NCBI GenBank assembly: GCA_963808625.1
Contig: CAWEHK010000021.1
Span: 64,001-128,000, forward strand
Reading direction: 5' to 3'
Length of the DNA stretch: 64,000 bases
Origin: an uncultured delta proteobacterium
GTDB taxonomy: Bacteria; Desulfobacterota; Syntrophobacteria; Syntrophobacterales; Syntrophobacteraceae
The notes below the pieces were generated by a model. It was given only the letters and a program-made list of their open reading frames with translations, searched no databases and was not told where the DNA came from. This document shows, one piece after another, positions 14,949 through 34,684 of this stretch (the first letter of the stretch is position 1; the number at the start of each line of letters is the position of its first letter). The translations under genes were made by a program, and so were the position numbers.

Positions 14949-16196
14949 TTATAAGTGCCTCCAGAGCATGATGAGCGCCGCCTGGGCAGCACGTTCCTGC
15001 ACCAGCTCACGATCTCCGGTGAAGTGATGCTTTGCGACTTCGATCCGGTTTGGGGTTGCGCAAGCGATAAAAACCGTACCCACCGGTTTTTCTTCCGTAC
15101 CGCCCGTGGGCCCGGCAATTCCGGTTATGGCCAGCGCGGTTTCGACGCCGGCCCCCTCGCGAAGGCCCCGAACCATGGCCAGCGCCACCTCTTCGCTGAC
15201 CGCCCCGAAAGCGGCGATCTGATCCGGCGGGACCTGCAGTAATTCTTCTTTAGCCGCATTGCTGTAGGTGACCAAACCCCGGTCAAAATAGTCCGAAGCC
15301 CCTGAAATGGCGGTTATTTTCCTCGCCACCAGGCCCCCGGTGCACGACTCGGCAACGGCCAGCCGCCAGCCCCTTGCCCTCAGGTTTTCACCAATGACCT
15401 TTTCCAGCGTTTCCTGGTTTCGTCCGATTACATGCTCGGGGCCAATCAGGGCGATGATTTTCGCTTCGAGCTCTGCGATGCGCGTTCGAGCTATCTGCTC
15501 ACTTTCCGCAGTGGCCAGGAACGTCAATCTGACCTCGGCATCATGAGGCAGATAGCCGATCTCGACCCCGGCACTTTCGGTCCTGAGGGCCACCAGGAGC
15601 CGGTTCAGATCAGACTCGTAATAGCCATGGAGGCGGAGGATTTGTTTTACCGCCACGAGACGTTCTGGAAACCACTTTTCCAGACCCGGAATGACCAATT
15701 CTCTGAGCAGGGTTTTCATCTCATGGGGCACGCCGGGGAGAAAATAGCAGGGCACCTTTTCATGCTCGAGGAAGTATCCGGCCATCCCAAGTCCGAGCTT
15801 AACCGCCCCCTGGGGCACCTGAGCCATTTTTGCAATGGGTTCGGTCCATGGCCGCCCCTGCTTTGCCAGGCGTTCTTTAAGCCATTGCGTATAACCGGGT
15901 TCAGGGACCAAGTTCCGCTCGAATGCGCGCGAGACAGCGGCATTGGTGCGATCATCGTCGGTCGGGCCGAGGCCCCCCGTTACGATCAGAAACTGCGACT
16001 CCCGATGGCACTGGGAGAGGGCCTTGACGATCTCCTCCTCGTCATCCCCGATGGTCAGCATCCGCTCCAGCCGGAAACCTTTTGCGCGGAGCTCGACGGC
16101 GATATGGTGGGCATTGCCGTTGGCTATGTCCCCGAAGAGAATTTCATCTCCAATCGTTACGAGTGAACCCGCAACGGTTCTCAGTCGTTCTGTCAT
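14949..16196 (-). CDS. cinA: CinA family competence/damage-inducible protein (NMN deamidase)
   Basis: IGDEIL.G, TGGLGPTDDD, AESCTGG, TGIAGPTGG. Confidence 0.95.
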   Translation of the reverse strand: MTERLRTVAGSLVTIGDEILFGDIANGNAHHIAVELRAKGFRLERMLTIGDDEEEIVKALSQCHRESQFLIVTGGLGPTDDDRTNAAVSRAFERNLVPEPGYTQWLKERLAKQGRPWTEPIAKMAQVPQGAVKLGLGMAGYFLEHEKVPCYFLPGVPHEMKTLLRELVIPGLEKWFPERLVAVKQILRLHGYYESDLNRLLVALRTESAGVEIGYLPHDAEVRLTFLATAESEQIARTRIAELEAKIIALIGPEHVIGRNQETLEKVIGENLRARGWRLAVAESCTGGLVARKITAISGASDYFDRGLVTYSNAAKEELLQVPPDQIAAFGAVSEEVALAMVRGLREGAGVETALAITGIAGPTGGTEEKPVGTVFIACATPNRIEVAKHHFTGDRELVQERAAQAALIMLWRHL

Positions 16197-28964: not shown

Positions 28965-29372
28965 TCACTGTGATCGCACTTCCAGCCTCAGCCCCTCGAT
29001 CTTCTCGAAATCGCGCCGGTTAGCCGTGATAACCGAATAGTCAAGGGAAATGGCCGTGGCTGCGATGATCAGGTCGTGGGCGCCGATGGTCAATCCCTTC
29101 TTTGCCAGGGAGGCCCAGATGCGTGCATAAATGCGCGCCACCGTGGTGTCGAAGGGAAAGATGGGGAATGACTCCAACACCTTTTCAACGAAGGACTGGC
29201 GCTTCAGCCGACGGGCCTCGGTATCGGCGCGTTCCACTCCATGCAGCAGTTCCGCAACGGTAACCACACTGATGCCGAATGGTTCATCCTCGCGACCAGA
29301 CACGAGGATTTGCACCTGTGCTCGGTTCCGTTCAAGGGAGATGATTTCGCTGGAATCAAAGATTACCCCCAT
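28965..29372 (-). CDS. vapC: VapC PIN-domain toxin
   Basis: DSS, SVVTVAEL..G, GAHDLIIAATA, TANRRDF. Confidence 0.93.
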   Translation of the reverse strand: MGVIFDSSEIISLERNRAQVQILVSGREDEPFGISVVTVAELLHGVERADTEARRLKRQSFVEKVLESFPIFPFDTTVARIYARIWASLAKKGLTIGAHDLIIAATAISLDYSVITANRRDFEKIEGLRLEVRSQ

Positions 29373-29644
29373 ACCGTATCCTCCGGCAGAGGGGGTTGGG
29401 CTTTGACTGCCCCAAGAACGTCATCGGCAAAGTTGATGTCATCGGGATCGAGCTTCGGTAAGGTCTGAAAAATGCCTTTCAAATCGCCCATATGTCGGGG
29501 AGAACCGGCTTCATCAACCGGGACAAGGGCCGCCGCCGGTTTTCCCCCGCGAATGATCGTATAGCGGTCCCCACGGTATTTGATGTTGTTCAACAGTTCG
29601 GAAAAATGTCTGACCGCCTCGGTAGCGCTTATGTCTGGTCGCAT
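29363..29644 (-). CDS. Phd/YefM-family antitoxin
   Basis: ISATEAVRHFSELL...IIRGGKPAAALVP; overlaps the vapC start. Confidence 0.9.
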   Translation of the reverse strand: MRPDISATEAVRHFSELLNNIKYRGDRYTIIRGGKPAAALVPVDEAGSPRHMGDLKGIFQTLPKLDPDDINFADDVLGAVKAQPPLPEDTVWG

Positions 29645-29733
29645 GGTTTCCTCCTCGTAAAATATTATTATCATATTTTACACAAACAATGCGTGACCGG
29701 CAAGAGGACTCTGCCCCAATCGGGATAAATCGA

Positions 29734-30178: not shown

Positions 30179-30227
30179 TTGACATTCTGAATTATACGCA
30201 TATAAACGTATAGTAATATATTGCTAT
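30179..30227 (+). promoter_or_regulatory. Sigma-70 promoter with overlapping palindromes (candidate ArsR operator)
   Basis: TTGACA (30179) - 16 nt - TATAAA (30201); TATACG-N8-CGTATA (30193-30212) and ATAGTAATATATTGCTAT (30210-30227). Confidence 0.6.
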
Positions 30228-30444
30228 ACCAATTTGGAATGTTTTAAGGCCTTGTTTGAGATCAGTCGAAAGGGCCTCAGCAGGGCTTCCAGTGACCGGA
30301 CAATAGGGAGGAGTGTCTCTGATGAAAAAGGCGAGCGCTGTCATCTTCGGAACTGCCGCAGAAGTGCCTGCCGGCTCGGCATAAAACAGGATGGATGATT
30401 GTCTATGGAAAAGCCAGCCCGAGGAAAGCCGTTAAGGGGGCTCG

Positions 30445-30807
30445 ATGGAGCAAAAGAGAAGGAGGAACATCCTGTTGCCGCGGCGCAGGAGGCAATGGTG
30501 CTGCGCGAGCGAGCACTTCCAGACCGTCGCTTTTCTTGCAAAGAGCCTATCGGATGAGAACCGGCTGCGGATCATCCTCTGCGTGAGCAACGGCAAGAAG
30601 TCCGTCTCGAGCATCGTTGAGGAACTCGGTCTTTCGCAGCCCCTGGTTTCCCATCACCTGAAGGAGCTCAAGCGATCGCTGCTGGTCAAGATCGAGCGCA
30701 ACGGCCCTTTCATCTATTACGAACTGGTTGATGCGAGAATCCTCGATGTCTTTCGGACATTGAGCACCGTGGCAACGGATTTGCTGACCGCAAGGAAAAC
30801 CTTTTGA
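30445..30807 (+). CDS. ArsR/SmtB-family metalloregulator (TsoR-like)
   Basis: AKSLSDENRLRII...LSQPLVSHHLKELK...ERNGPFIYY; N-terminal start uncertain. Confidence 0.92.
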   Translation: MEQKRRRNILLPRRRRQWCCASEHFQTVAFLAKSLSDENRLRIILCVSNGKKSVSSIVEELGLSQPLVSHHLKELKRSLLVKIERNGPFIYYELVDARILDVFRTLSTVATDLLTARKTF

Positions 30808-30832
30808 GAGAGGCGGAGGTGATCTGATCCGT

Positions 30833-31282
30833 ATGGAAGAGATGCTGAAAATAGTTGGCCACATGGATCCGGAAGAAGCGCTCACCGAAATATCCCAAGT
30901 CCTGAAAGTGCTTTTCTCCGCTTTGGGTGAAGAGGCGCGTTCGCAATTCCTGTGGGACCTCATGGGAGAGTCCCGGGGCGACAAGGTGTCGAGCCTGGTC
31001 CATCTCTGACTGGCCGAATGCATGGGCGAAGGTGTCGACCCGACGCAAATGTGTCAGAGACTGGTGGATAAGGTTGCCCAATCCAAACAACTGATGGCGA
31101 TGACCGATCCGGATCTCCTGGTGCTGTTCGAAGACTGGTTTGAAGAACTGGAAGAGGAGATCATCTCGCTCGTCAGCGAGCATGGCCCTCTCAAAGCGGG
31201 AGAGCTTGCCGAAAAGACCGGGCTCTCCCTGCGGGGGGCAACCTTCCTCCTCTCAAAGCTCAAACGTGAGGGAAAATTGTAG
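30833..31282 (+). CDS. tsoA: LULAxC-motif selenoprotein (TsoA-like, 149 aa; Sec59, TGA 31007-31009) with C-terminal winged helix
   Basis: RBS GGAGGTGAT; MEEMLK...SSLVHL-U-LAECMGEG... reads in frame into ORF 31022..31282; SECIS-like hairpin; family name from memory. Confidence 0.8.
31024..31041 (+). promoter_or_regulatory. Putative SECIS hairpin of the tsoA-like gene
   Basis: GGGCGA / AGGTG / TCG-A-CCC; loop 20 nt after UGA. Confidence 0.55.
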
Positions 31283-31320: not shown

Positions 31321-33153
31321 ATGCAGAACAAGAGAACGACCTTCACAGCCCTTGTGGCGGTACTGCTTACGGTTGGGGCCCTCTGGCTTACCAATCGCGC
31401 CGTTACTCCCAAGCAGGCTGCATGGGACGATGTTTTGGCCGAAGCGACAGCCGGAGGCTACAAGATTATCACCACCGACGAGCTTTCCGAGCGCTATCAA
31501 AACGATGCCAAAAGCCTTCTCCTGGTGGACACTCGCCAGGAATGGGAGTATCGGACAGGGCATCTCCCGGGAGCGGTAAACTTTCCCATGGAGCCGACCT
31601 CATGGTCGAGATGGCGCAAGGCATCGGCACTCGAAACCTTCCTCGGGCCGGATAAGGATCGCACCATCATCTTCTACTGAGCGGGCCTCACCTGAGTCCG
31701 CAGCGACTCGGCGGCCCGTGTGGCCGTAAAGCTCGGTTATCAGAACGTCTACCGCGACCCTTATGGCTATCCTGAATGGCAGGGGAGAGGGTTGCCCGTT
31801 GCGAGCGCCCCGGCAGGCCTAGCCCAAACAAGCGAAGAGCCCAAGGCGCCGGGACCTCTTTACGGCTGGGCCATGATCTGGACCCTGTTGGGCATCTTCG
31901 CCGGTGGCATGGCCTTGAACCTCACCCCTTGCGTCTACCCCCTGATTCCTATTACCGTCTCCTACTTTGGCGGCCAGGCCACAAAGGGAGGAGAAGGCCA
32001 GGGAAAGCTCGTGGCGCACGGTCTGTGTTATATGATGGGCCTGGCGGTTGCCAATTCGGTCCTTGGAGTGGCAGCCTCTCTCACCGGCGGTCTCATGGGA
32101 GGAATGCTCCAGAATCCCATTGTCCTTATTCTGGTAGCGGCGGTTCTGGTCTTTTTTGCAGCGAGCCTCTTCGGGCTGTGGGAAGTCCGTCTTCCGAGCG
32201 GCCTTACGCAGGCTGCCGCAAAATCGTATACGGGCTACTTCGGAAGCCTCTTCATGGGGCTGACCCTCGGAGTGGTCGCAGCTCCCTGTATCGGTCCTTT
32301 CGTGTTGGGGCTCCTCACCTGGGTTGCCAGCATGGGAAGCCCATGGCTCGGGTTTGTGATCTTTTTTACCTTGAGTCTGGGCCTGGGACTGCCGCTCTTC
32401 CTCCTTGCCATGTTTTCGGGGCAACTGGAAAAACTCCCCCGCTCGGGAGGTTGGATGATCTGGGTGAGAAAGCTCATGGGCTGGGTCCTGGTCGCAATGG
32501 CCGTCCATTTTATGAGGCCGGTTCTTCCCGGTCACTGGGGAACCATTCTGCTTGCCCTTGTCGCCCTGGCTGCAGGGTTGCACCTGGGGTGGATCGACAA
32601 AAGCCAGGCCAACTTCCGTGCTTTCCCCTGGCTTAAGGGCGGAGCGGGGGTGGCATGCCTGGTTCTGGCCGCCTTCCTCCTCGCGTCATGGGCGATGCAA
32701 GGCCCCGGCGTCACCTGGAAGCCCTACTCGGAGGAGACTCTGAAAGAGGCCCAAAACTTGAGGAAGCCGGTCATCATCGATTTCTATGCCACCTGGTGCA
32801 CGCCATGCCGTGAGCTTGAGGAAGTCACGTTTCACGATGCCTCGGTCGTAAAGCTGGCCGAGAGCGACTTTATCATGGTCAAAGTGGATGTGACCAAAGG
32901 CGGTAACCCCGTGCACGAACGCTTGCTGCAGCAATACGAGGTGAAGGGGGTCCCGACCATAGTGTTCCTGGATAGCAGCGGCAAGGAAAAGCGGGATCTG
33001 CGCCTGGTGGATTTCCTCCCGGCCGATCAGTTCCTTGGCCGCATGGCAGAGCTCAAGAAAGGCGCGCAGCTAAAGAAAAGGAGAAGAAGCGATGCTGAAG
33101 GTGAGATTTTTCCTGAACGAGCCCGGCGGCAAGCCCTGAAGGCATTTCGCTGA
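31321..33153 (+). CDS. tsoB: Rhodanese-DsbD(beta)-thioredoxin fusion selenoprotein (TsoB-like) with two Sec (TGA 31678-31680 and 31693-31695)
   Basis: ORFs 31321..31680 and 31720..33153 share a frame, joined by IIFY-U-AGLT-U-VRSDSAA (rhodanese loop FYCxGxxCxRS). Then LTPCVYP and AAPCIGP (DsbD/CcdA transmembrane cysteines) and FYATWCTPC (Trx). The true stop may be TAA 33071-33073 after a terminal indel. Family name from memory. Confidence 0.88.
31681..31727 (+). promoter_or_regulatory. Two overlapping SECIS-like hairpins serving tandem UGA codons
   Basis: HP1: GCGGGCC(31681-87)/GGCCCGT(31713-19) plus CTGAGTC(31692-98)-CGCAGC-GACTCGG(31705-11); HP2: GCGGCC(31711-16)-CGTGT-GGCCGT(31722-27). Confidence 0.65.
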
Positions 33154-33430
33154 AATCATCCCCAGGCTGGGGAAAAAGTACCAGGTGGAAATCGAGACCA
33201 CATCCAAACCCAACCAGGAGTATCGTACCGAAGAATACGCCGGACTGGGGCTGCCGATGGCCCCGGCGATCATGGTCGGAGATGAGCTCATCGTGCAGGG
33301 CTGTGACGTGGATGAAGACAAGCTTGAGGCTGCCATCTGCCGGCATCTTGGGTTGCCTGAACCGGAACCGCGGAAGAAGGGGATCTTTGACAGGTTTCTC
33401 GGGAGGGGAATAAGCAAAGAGGGCAGGTGA
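33092..33430 (+). CDS. tsoC: NEPxGxxU-motif thioredoxin-like selenoprotein (TsoC-like, 112 aa; Sec16, TGA 33137-33139)
   Basis: RBS AAGGAG; MLKVRFFLNEPGGKP-U-RHFAEIIP... in frame with ORF 33185..33430 (APAIMVGDE cis-Pro-like loop); family name from memory. Confidence 0.82.
33159..33173 (+). promoter_or_regulatory. Putative SECIS hairpin of the tsoC-like gene
   Basis: TCCCC / AGGCT / GGGGA; loop 24 nt after UGA. Confidence 0.5.
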
Positions 33431-33506: not shown

Positions 33507-34684
33507 ATGGAAACTGTTCGTGCTCATGACGTGCATCACGCCCCATTACTGCGCCAGTTGTTCGGTTCTTTCCTGAGGATGGGGATCACTGCTTTCGGCG
33601 GTCCCGCCATGATCGCCTACATCAGGAAGATGGCCGTCGGCGAGAAGCAATGGCTTGACAGCGAATCCTTTCAGGACGGCGTGGCCCTGTGTCAGACGAT
33701 ACCAGGGGCGACTGCCATGCAGATGGCGGCTTATGTCGGGTTGAAAACGCGGGGTGTGCGCGGAGCGATCTCCTGTTACTCGGCTTTGGCCTTCCGGCGT
33801 TCCTTCTGATGCTGGGGCTGTCCTTTGCCTACTCTCAGACGCACGAGCTTCCGGCTGTCATTTCCGTTTTTAGCGGGCTTCAGGCTGTGATCGTAGCCGT
33901 CGTGGCCAACGCCACGTTGTCCTTCGGAAAGACCTCCGTCAAGAGCTGGAAGAGCGTGGTGATCGCCCTTGTTGCGGCAGGGCTTTTCTGGTTCATGGTA
34001 AACCCGGTGCTCATCATTTTTCTGGCCGCCCTCCTCGGAATGTTGCTGAACAGCAGGCAACCCGTCGCTCAGAGAGCTACGCATCCAACCCGCATGCGGC
34101 ACACAACCATCCCACTGCTGTTTTTTCTCTTCGCTTCCGCGGCGGGCCTTGCCCTGCTCTTTTTCTTTCGAAAGGAGCTCTTTCAGCTTGCCGTGCTCAT
34201 GTCCAAGATCGATCTCATCGCATTTGGCGGAGGGTTTGTCTCGGTGCCCCTCATGTTCCATGAAATCGTAGATGCCCGCTCCTGGATGGATGGTCCGACT
34301 TTTCTCAATGGGATCGTTCTCGGCCAGTTTACTCCCGGCCCCATTGTGATCACGGCAACTTTTGTGGGCTACCTGGTCTATGGCCTTCCCGGCGCCCTCG
34401 TTGCCACCGTGGCCATCTTTCTTCCGTCGTTTCTCATCCTGGTAGGCGTCGCCCCCTGGTTTGACCGGGTGCGCTCATCGCCATGGTTCACCAGGGCTAT
34501 CGACGGTATCCTTTGCTCCTTTGTGGGGCTCCTCTTGACCGTCACCATCCGCTTTGCTTTGAACGTCCACTGGGACTGGCCTCACCTGGCTCTCGCGGCG
34601 GCGGCCTTCGCCGCTCTGATTTTCAAGCTGGATATCCTCTGGGTAGTTCTTGGGGGAACCGCGATTTCGGCATTTGTCTTTTAG
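33507..34684 (+). CDS. chrA: Long-chain chromate ion transporter, CHR family (frameshift near 33780)
   Basis: FLRMGITAFGGP...CQTIPG and AFGGG...GQFTPGP two-domain CHR signature. Confidence 0.92.

Follow-up and report, generated by a model that had tools for sequence, protein, structure and literature searches.

The window, by which we mean the whole stretch of 64,000 nucleotides analysed here, carries a Tso operon in which tsoR, tsoA, tsoB and tsoC follow one another on one strand (+), each scoring over the cut-off of its NCBIfam profile. The first gene, tsoR (30445-30807), encodes an ArsR/SmtB-type regulator (NF045707, 172.7 bits against a cut-off of 115). It is followed by tsoA (30833-31282), the gene under study, which is assigned by its match to NF045695 and by conservation and structural models. 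The third gene, tsoB (31321-33153), encodes a rhodanese/DsbD fusion with two in-frame TGA codons (NF045694, 1024.5 bits, cut-off 805), and tsoC (33092-33430) encodes a NEPxGxxU selenoprotein (NF045708, 145.4 bits, cut-off 45). A gene pair for a Phd-type antitoxin and a VapC-like toxin lies upstream of the operon on the opposite strand (28965-29674).

When its TGA is read as selenocysteine, tsoA forms one frame of 149 codons with a single in-frame TGA. The predicted selenocysteine U59 lies within the sequence HL-U-LAEC, C63 (codon at 31019-31021) lies four residues beyond it, and C74 follows 11 residues past C63. An earlier, sequence-only reading of this DNA had described a UxxxC motif with a further cysteine about 11 residues on, and these residues, together with the C-terminal sequence that it quoted, were found where it had placed them. 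Its ribosome-binding site is present as well (GGAGGTGATC, 30815-30824, + strand), with the GGAGG core ending 13 nt before the ATG; a purine-rich site also precedes the gene in relatives, and the long spacing is common to the close ones. What did not hold was the implication that the protein was unrecognised. Residues 5-147 match the NCBIfam family NF045695 (LULAXC motif selenoprotein TsoA) at 225.8 bits against a cut-off of 170, and the LULAxC motif with its one selenocysteine corresponds to L58-U59-L60-A61-E62-C63. The gene is thus a member of a catalogued and already published selenoprotein family, and its finding here is a rediscovery. A 2026 review (PMC13188914) places TsoA among the selenoproteins predicted with high confidence, gives its LULAxC motif in Table 1, and names the Tso (three selenoprotein operon) system, citing Haft and Tolstoy 2025 as ref. 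64. Our literature searches met TsoA only in that review, and 'Tso' does not occur in the main text of BSepDB (PMC13326102). In its motif, its single selenocysteine and its TsoR, TsoB and TsoC neighbours the gene is itself no different from other TsoA genes.

Conservation was assessed in a scan of one genome per species, which gave 209 relatives, of which the best 80 loci were used. Both C63 and C74 are present in 80/80 of these loci. Codon 59 (31007-31009, + strand) is TGA in 79/80, AGA in one, and never TAA or TAG. A second, phylum-wide set, some of whose members repeat loci of the first, has U at position 59 in 36/36 full-length matches. The frame is kept on both sides of the TGA: codons 1-58, on whose in-frame conservation in homologues the earlier reading had made itself depend, stay in frame and vary synonymously in the codon table, and codons 60-63, which lead from the TGA to the next ATG, show synonymous changes that leave their amino acids as they are. 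This pattern bears out the earlier claim of a selenoprotein gene. The one tsoA with AGA (Arg) in place of TGA (L032:2446-2898) has a second, TGA-bearing copy in the same genome (L025), and one other locus among the best 80, L036, carries one further stop in tsoA.

The codons just 3' of the TGA are constrained in another way. Codons 65-69 are nearly frozen at synonymous sites, and it is these codons that form a predicted SECIS hairpin (31024-31041, + strand) of 6 bp with one bulged A and a 5-nt loop, AGGUG, that begins 20 nt downstream of the UGA. This geometry falls within that of bacterial SECIS elements (loop of 3-9 nt, stem of 4-16 bp, G within the first two positions of the loop, distance of 16-37 nt to the UGA). 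In an alignment of 84 distinct sequences, 502/504 cells of the hairpin columns are paired, against 15-50% when the partners are slid by 1-3 columns, a comparison that favours the hairpin since its structure was derived from the same 84 sequences. One pair is G-C in 63 sequences, A-U in 20 and G-U in 1, and is therefore compensatory; in sequences where codon 65 encodes Asp in place of Gly, the silent base of codon 69 is altered to match. The G-C/A-U switch amounts to about 4-5 changes on a quick tree that is poorly resolved and has many open forks. Folding of the single sequence did not single out the hairpin: the 60-nt stretch folds at -16.7 kcal/mol (bSECIS threshold -7.5) but into another shape, and its shuffles fold just as well (z -0.56).

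The genome encodes SelA, SelB and SelD, all over cut-off, and selD itself contains one in-frame TGA. A tRNA-Sec was not found in the 84.6% complete assembly, in which tRNA-Tyr and tRNA-Ile are missing too; the top RF01852 match is a tRNA-Trp (150 of 734 candidates scored), and pattern searches likewise gave no convincing gene. A Cys in place of U59 was found in none of the 80 loci, none of the 36 further matches and none of the 15 full-length proteins read among the protein matches listed (120 of 1235 and 150 of 356), these 15 all having W there. These two absences, together with the many pieces of 58 and 86 residues in protein collections (among the matches listed), are what one would expect if the TGA were a true stop and the locus encoded separate proteins of 58 and 86 residues, which is how automatic gene callers treat it. 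We nevertheless consider a true stop very improbable, given that the codon is almost always TGA, with TAA and TAG absent, that the four codons leading on to the ATG are conserved as amino acids, that the hairpin covaries, and that in relatives with Met-rich N-termini (described below) one chain crosses the corresponding region. We predict that UGA 59 is decoded as selenocysteine by way of the hairpin 3' of it.

Although tsoA is intact in this assembly, the operon around it differs from other Tso operons by one-base insertions in tsoR and at the end of tsoB, by a single tsoC, and by a split chromate transporter gene behind it. In tsoR there is one extra base near 30508, in comparison with 17/17 aligned relatives and with one contig of sequencing run X2, so that the start ATGs of relatives (30405 and 30495) are no longer in frame. 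A TTG at 30475 is in frame and has a ribosome site, and a start there could give the TsoR core. The 'WCC' at the start of the longest tsoR frame was considered as an arsenic site and rejected as a product of the one-base insertion. In tsoB one extra base near 33065, relative to close relatives, removes their stop so that the frame extends into tsoC. A frame change near 33790 splits the chromate transporter gene chrA (33507-34684). These three frame changes may be assembly errors or decay. Among the sequencing runs searched none contained more than 0.18 of the words, and no run with this strain was found; two RNA libraries yielded contigs of relatives that span tsoR, tsoA and tsoB, and these are not informative on transcription.

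Two further local features were noted. Many relatives have two tandem tsoC-like genes, and the single copy here starts like the first and continues like the second, so that it is possibly a recombinant. Between the promoter and tsoR, a 20-codon frame behind a ribosome site (30323-30385) resembles the 3' end of a thioredoxin reductase gene, and relatives such as L002 have a thioredoxin reductase gene in just this position; the frame is likely, on this resemblance, to be the remnant of a deleted trxB.

Upstream of these genes is a predicted sigma-70 promoter (30179-30206, + strand) comprising TTGACA (30179-30184), a 16-nt spacer and TATAAA (30201-30206). The pattern has one exact match in the genome, and 0 for a reversed control, and a layout of TTGAC, spacer and operator is common to most of the related loci. 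A simple promoter scan did not list it. Overlapping the -10 box is a 22-bp imperfect palindrome, CATATAA-N8-TTATATG (30199-30220). With three or fewer mismatches the palindrome occurs in 72/78 upstream regions, against 4/78 shuffles and 1/73 downstream regions, counts that are favoured by AT-rich promoters and by the pattern having been taken from an alignment of 18 of the same 78 regions. It is the only high-scoring operator site in the window. A genome-wide scan gave one site scoring above it (26.5 against 23.7), which lies inside an AT-rich gene and was treated as chance.

The protein most plainly suited to this palindrome is TsoR, because the recognition helix of the ArsR partners of TsoA is near-invariant (SQPL(V/I)SHHL in 108/118) and the wing segment of TsoR is intact. 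The palindrome is therefore more likely, as far as sequence can tell, to be the operator of TsoR than a target of TsoA. How TsoR would sense a signal is less apparent. A scan for ArsR sensor motifs taken from a review (PMC11672702) found the alpha5 His motif, CxC, CC and CCx5C each in 0/118 partner ArsRs, counting core and tail and including a few fragments. Thirty-five of the 118 have no cysteine at all, 65 have one in the alpha2 region (placed by position), and only 1/118 has cysteines in both the alpha2 and alpha5 regions. TsoR is thus the obvious candidate for the operator, and it is without an evident sensor. Since the ArsR family is known to have gained sensor sites at new positions (PMC11672702), the alpha2-region cysteine of these 65 partners may be a sensor site of TsoR's own.

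The pairing of tsoR with tsoA is the most constant feature of the operon. TsoR is encoded directly upstream of tsoA in 78/78 loci with room for it, and an ArsR gene lies within 900 nt upstream in 115/117 distinct family genes, including three of the Met-rich type, to which both exceptions also belong. In the reverse direction, 40/42 TsoR places in 401 genomes adjoin a TsoA-like gene. These related genomes are not independent samples. At the two remaining places one tsoR has an internal stop and the other (L126) is intact and lies directly before a DsrE-like gene, in a genome (95% complete) where no TsoA was found. The genes downstream are more changeable. Among loci with room, a TsoB rhodanese is found in 56/74, DsbD in 55/67, TsoC in 57/67 and ChrA near tsoA in 7/59. 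In a survey of called frames (132 of 169 and 125 of 153 scanned), cargo in operons without tsoB included DsrE-like and arsenite-methyltransferase-like proteins with in-frame TGA, and also TauE, VTT, fatty-acid-hydroxylase-family, GDT1, DGC and MbdU-like proteins. Thioredoxin reductase is likewise among the varying cargo. Two genomes, G051 and G061, have four and two tsoA copies (L116, L117 and L118), with tandem tsoR-tsoA units that head different cargo; one tsoR of L117 is frameshifted.

The AlphaFold model of TsoA is all-helical, with a mean pLDDT of 79 and a pTM of 0.41. Its best-defined part is a three-helix HTH core at the C-terminus (residues 99-149; 31127-31279, + strand), formed by helices 93-117, 122-129 and 133-145, with pLDDT 93-95 from residue 101 and no strand. 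In fold comparisons this core matches winged-helix domains with a best Z of 7.4 (rmsd 1.0 over 49 residues), a score tied among many, and most of the top rows superpose with rmsd 1.0-2.2 over 46-54 residues. Foldseek gave no match to the core at E <= 0.001. Pfam HTH_24 is matched just over its cut-off (23.9 bits against 21.9). The sequence-only reading had assigned a winged helix to this region, and only half of this stood: the three-helix core that TsoA has in common with winged-helix DNA-binding domains (HTH_24; Lrp/AsnC, IclR, ROK, ArsR and Z-alpha) is modelled, but the wing strands are lacking, the protein is acidic, and none of these families stands out. The chain stops four residues past helix 3; among 110 Sec-bearing members (two short or broken rows were left out of the count), it ends 4-6 residues past helix 3 in 100, sooner in 3 and after at least 9 in 7. 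TsoA consequently does not follow the ArsR/SmtB layout of alpha1-alpha4, beta1-beta2 and alpha5, as its chain ends past the recognition helix. It scores 18.5 bits on NF033788 (cut-off 55), and a comparison of TsoA and TsoR profiles showed no likeness (probability 0.9%).

The same reading had taken TsoA for a second, switchable regulator of the operon. TsoA might bind DNA itself in that role, or as a subunit of a complex with TsoR, switched through U59, C63 and C74. The HTH_24 match over cut-off and the fit of the core to those of Lrp/AsnC, IclR, ROK and ArsR proteins are in keeping with this, and several HTH regulators have short or no wings. The third helix also keeps S132 and basic residues (R134 in 87, K142 in 105 and R145 in 96 of the 110 members), which could touch DNA. 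On the same helix, however, there is variation at positions 133 (2.9 bits) and 137 (2.1 bits), and position 138 is aromatic in 109/110. The net charge of TsoA is -13, with -8 on the first helix of the core, and +4 over residues 118-149. With the wing lacking, with no profile likeness to TsoR, and with the one operator type found in a scan for the known pattern being explained by TsoR, we judge DNA binding by TsoA to be unlikely.

The N-terminal part of TsoA is less well defined. In the models one helix carries both U59 and C63, at a spacing of four residues and on the same face, with C74 on the next helix; confidence in this region is low to moderate (pLDDT 56-66 in one model and 62-90 in another, pTM ~0.4). 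Residues 1-98 folded alone gave a best Z of 4.8 in fold searches and no Foldseek match at E <= 0.001, and so offered no support for a CsoR-like or Spy/ZraP-like N-terminus. A sequence search of solved structures returned one chance match (E 0.21). RNA or Z-DNA binding, suggested by matches to SelB and Z-alpha, was set aside because these are ties among many winged helices. Elsewhere in this genome, a different gene on contig C43 has a weak match to the three-helix core (15101-15238, E 0.16).

A profile search also brought up more distant relatives in which Met-rich N-termini, sometimes CC-bearing, replace the UxxxC stretch while C74 is kept. These uncharacterised Met-rich HTH proteins share with TsoA the PxxMC sequence containing C74, the LFEDW helix and the three-helix core, and differ from it in having no U59 or C63, a longer tail past helix 3, and scores of 57-80 bits, under the TsoA cut-off. 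In the tail they keep an extra alternating-hydrophobic segment past helix 3, a point in favour of DNA binding by TsoA. An ArsR gene lies upstream in three distinct loci (L081, L083 and L084) and is missing upstream in two, L112 and L121. The replacement of the UxxxC stretch by methionines points, by inference from these sequences, to the binding of soft metals. One Met-rich gene, L082 (L112:7747-8079), has a TGA four residues before the C74-equivalent cysteine, where L081 and L084 have Cys; it is possible that this is a second, independent selenocysteine position, or else a nonsense change in a decaying locus without an upstream ArsR. An intermediate subfamily, comprising L085 and protein P0150, keeps UxxxC, has Ser at the C74 position and has a longer tail past helix 3.

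The closest known system with a comparable division of labour is SrnR/SrnQ of Streptomyces griseus, in which the ArsR-family protein SrnR depends on the nickel-binding protein SrnQ, the two forming a 1:1 complex (PMC11672702, PMC7055735). By analogy, an ArsR-family DNA binder and a separate ligand-binding partner would divide the work between TsoR and TsoA. As with SrnR and SrnQ, TsoA adjoins an ArsR partner without a known sensor motif (adjacent in 115/117; 118 scanned). The differences are that SrnQ binds nickel and, according to a review, resembles no known protein (PMC11672702, PMC7055735), whereas TsoA carries Sec/Cys ligands and an HTH core, and that the SrnRQ complex has been shown by experiment, whereas a TsoR-TsoA complex is proposed here from sequences.

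We propose, with about even confidence, that TsoA is a Sec/Cys sensor partner of TsoR, as SrnQ is for SrnR. The sequences describe a fixed two-gene head, tsoR-tsoA, with one promoter and one palindrome over its -10 box, followed by a changing cargo rich in thiols and selenols. TsoR would bind the palindrome and so repress the operon. As the motif scan of TsoR came up empty for known ArsR sensor motifs, whether for metals, arsenic or persulfide, the operon is otherwise without an evident sensor, and this sensor would be supplied by TsoA. Here U59, C63 and C74 could either coordinate a thiophilic metal(loid), for example As(III), or undergo reaction with sulfane sulfur or selenium, and the conserved C-terminal part, with its acidic helix and wingless core, would contact TsoR and alter its grip on the operator. 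The data are compatible with TsoA acting either as a co-repressor or as an anti-repressor. A regulatory role of this kind fits the fixed pairing of TsoA with an ArsR gene, but the same pairing is also expected from a chaperone, or from a second regulator, inside an autoregulated operon, and the intact tsoR without TsoA at L126 speaks against the partner model.

The chaperone reading deserves separate consideration. TsoA could be a metal(loid) or sulfur/selenium chaperone or buffer, co-transcribed with the repressor, that passes its ligand to the cargo proteins, with its core serving as a docking or oligomerisation module; the role would be ArsD-like. Three chalcogen ligands in TsoA, its Met-rich relatives, and cargo that includes methyltransferases, DsrE, rhodanese and exporters all agree with this, as does the presence among its structural neighbours of winged helices that do not act as transcription factors (ESCRT-II and SelB). 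Against it, the cargo is exchanged completely while the ArsR neighbour remains, and, given the lack of known sensor motifs in TsoR, the operon would be left without an evident sensor. On balance we regard a chaperone role as rather unlikely.

If TsoA is instead the sensing partner of TsoR, the pair may be seen as a split one-component regulator with a selenoprotein as its sensor, derived from a Met/Cys-rich, Sec-free ArsR partner, a scenario that we hold tentatively and at somewhat less than even probability. Full-length TsoA is made only if UGA 59 is recoded, so that such a module would tie the expression of selenoprotein-rich cargo to the selenium supply. In the table of 119 families in PMC13188914 none is named a DNA-binding regulator or co-regulator, the nearest being a putative FmdB-family regulatory protein.

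The family is already catalogued, and for the function of TsoA the comparisons supply a named operator, a repressor without known sensor residues, and a fixed partner with three chalcogen ligands, together with Sec-free relatives whose expression needs no recoding. Should the partner model be true, TsoA would be a selenocysteine-dependent transcriptional sensor, and would indicate which stress the Tso operons of anaerobic Thermodesulfobacteriota respond to, be it arsenic, soft metals or reactive sulfur.
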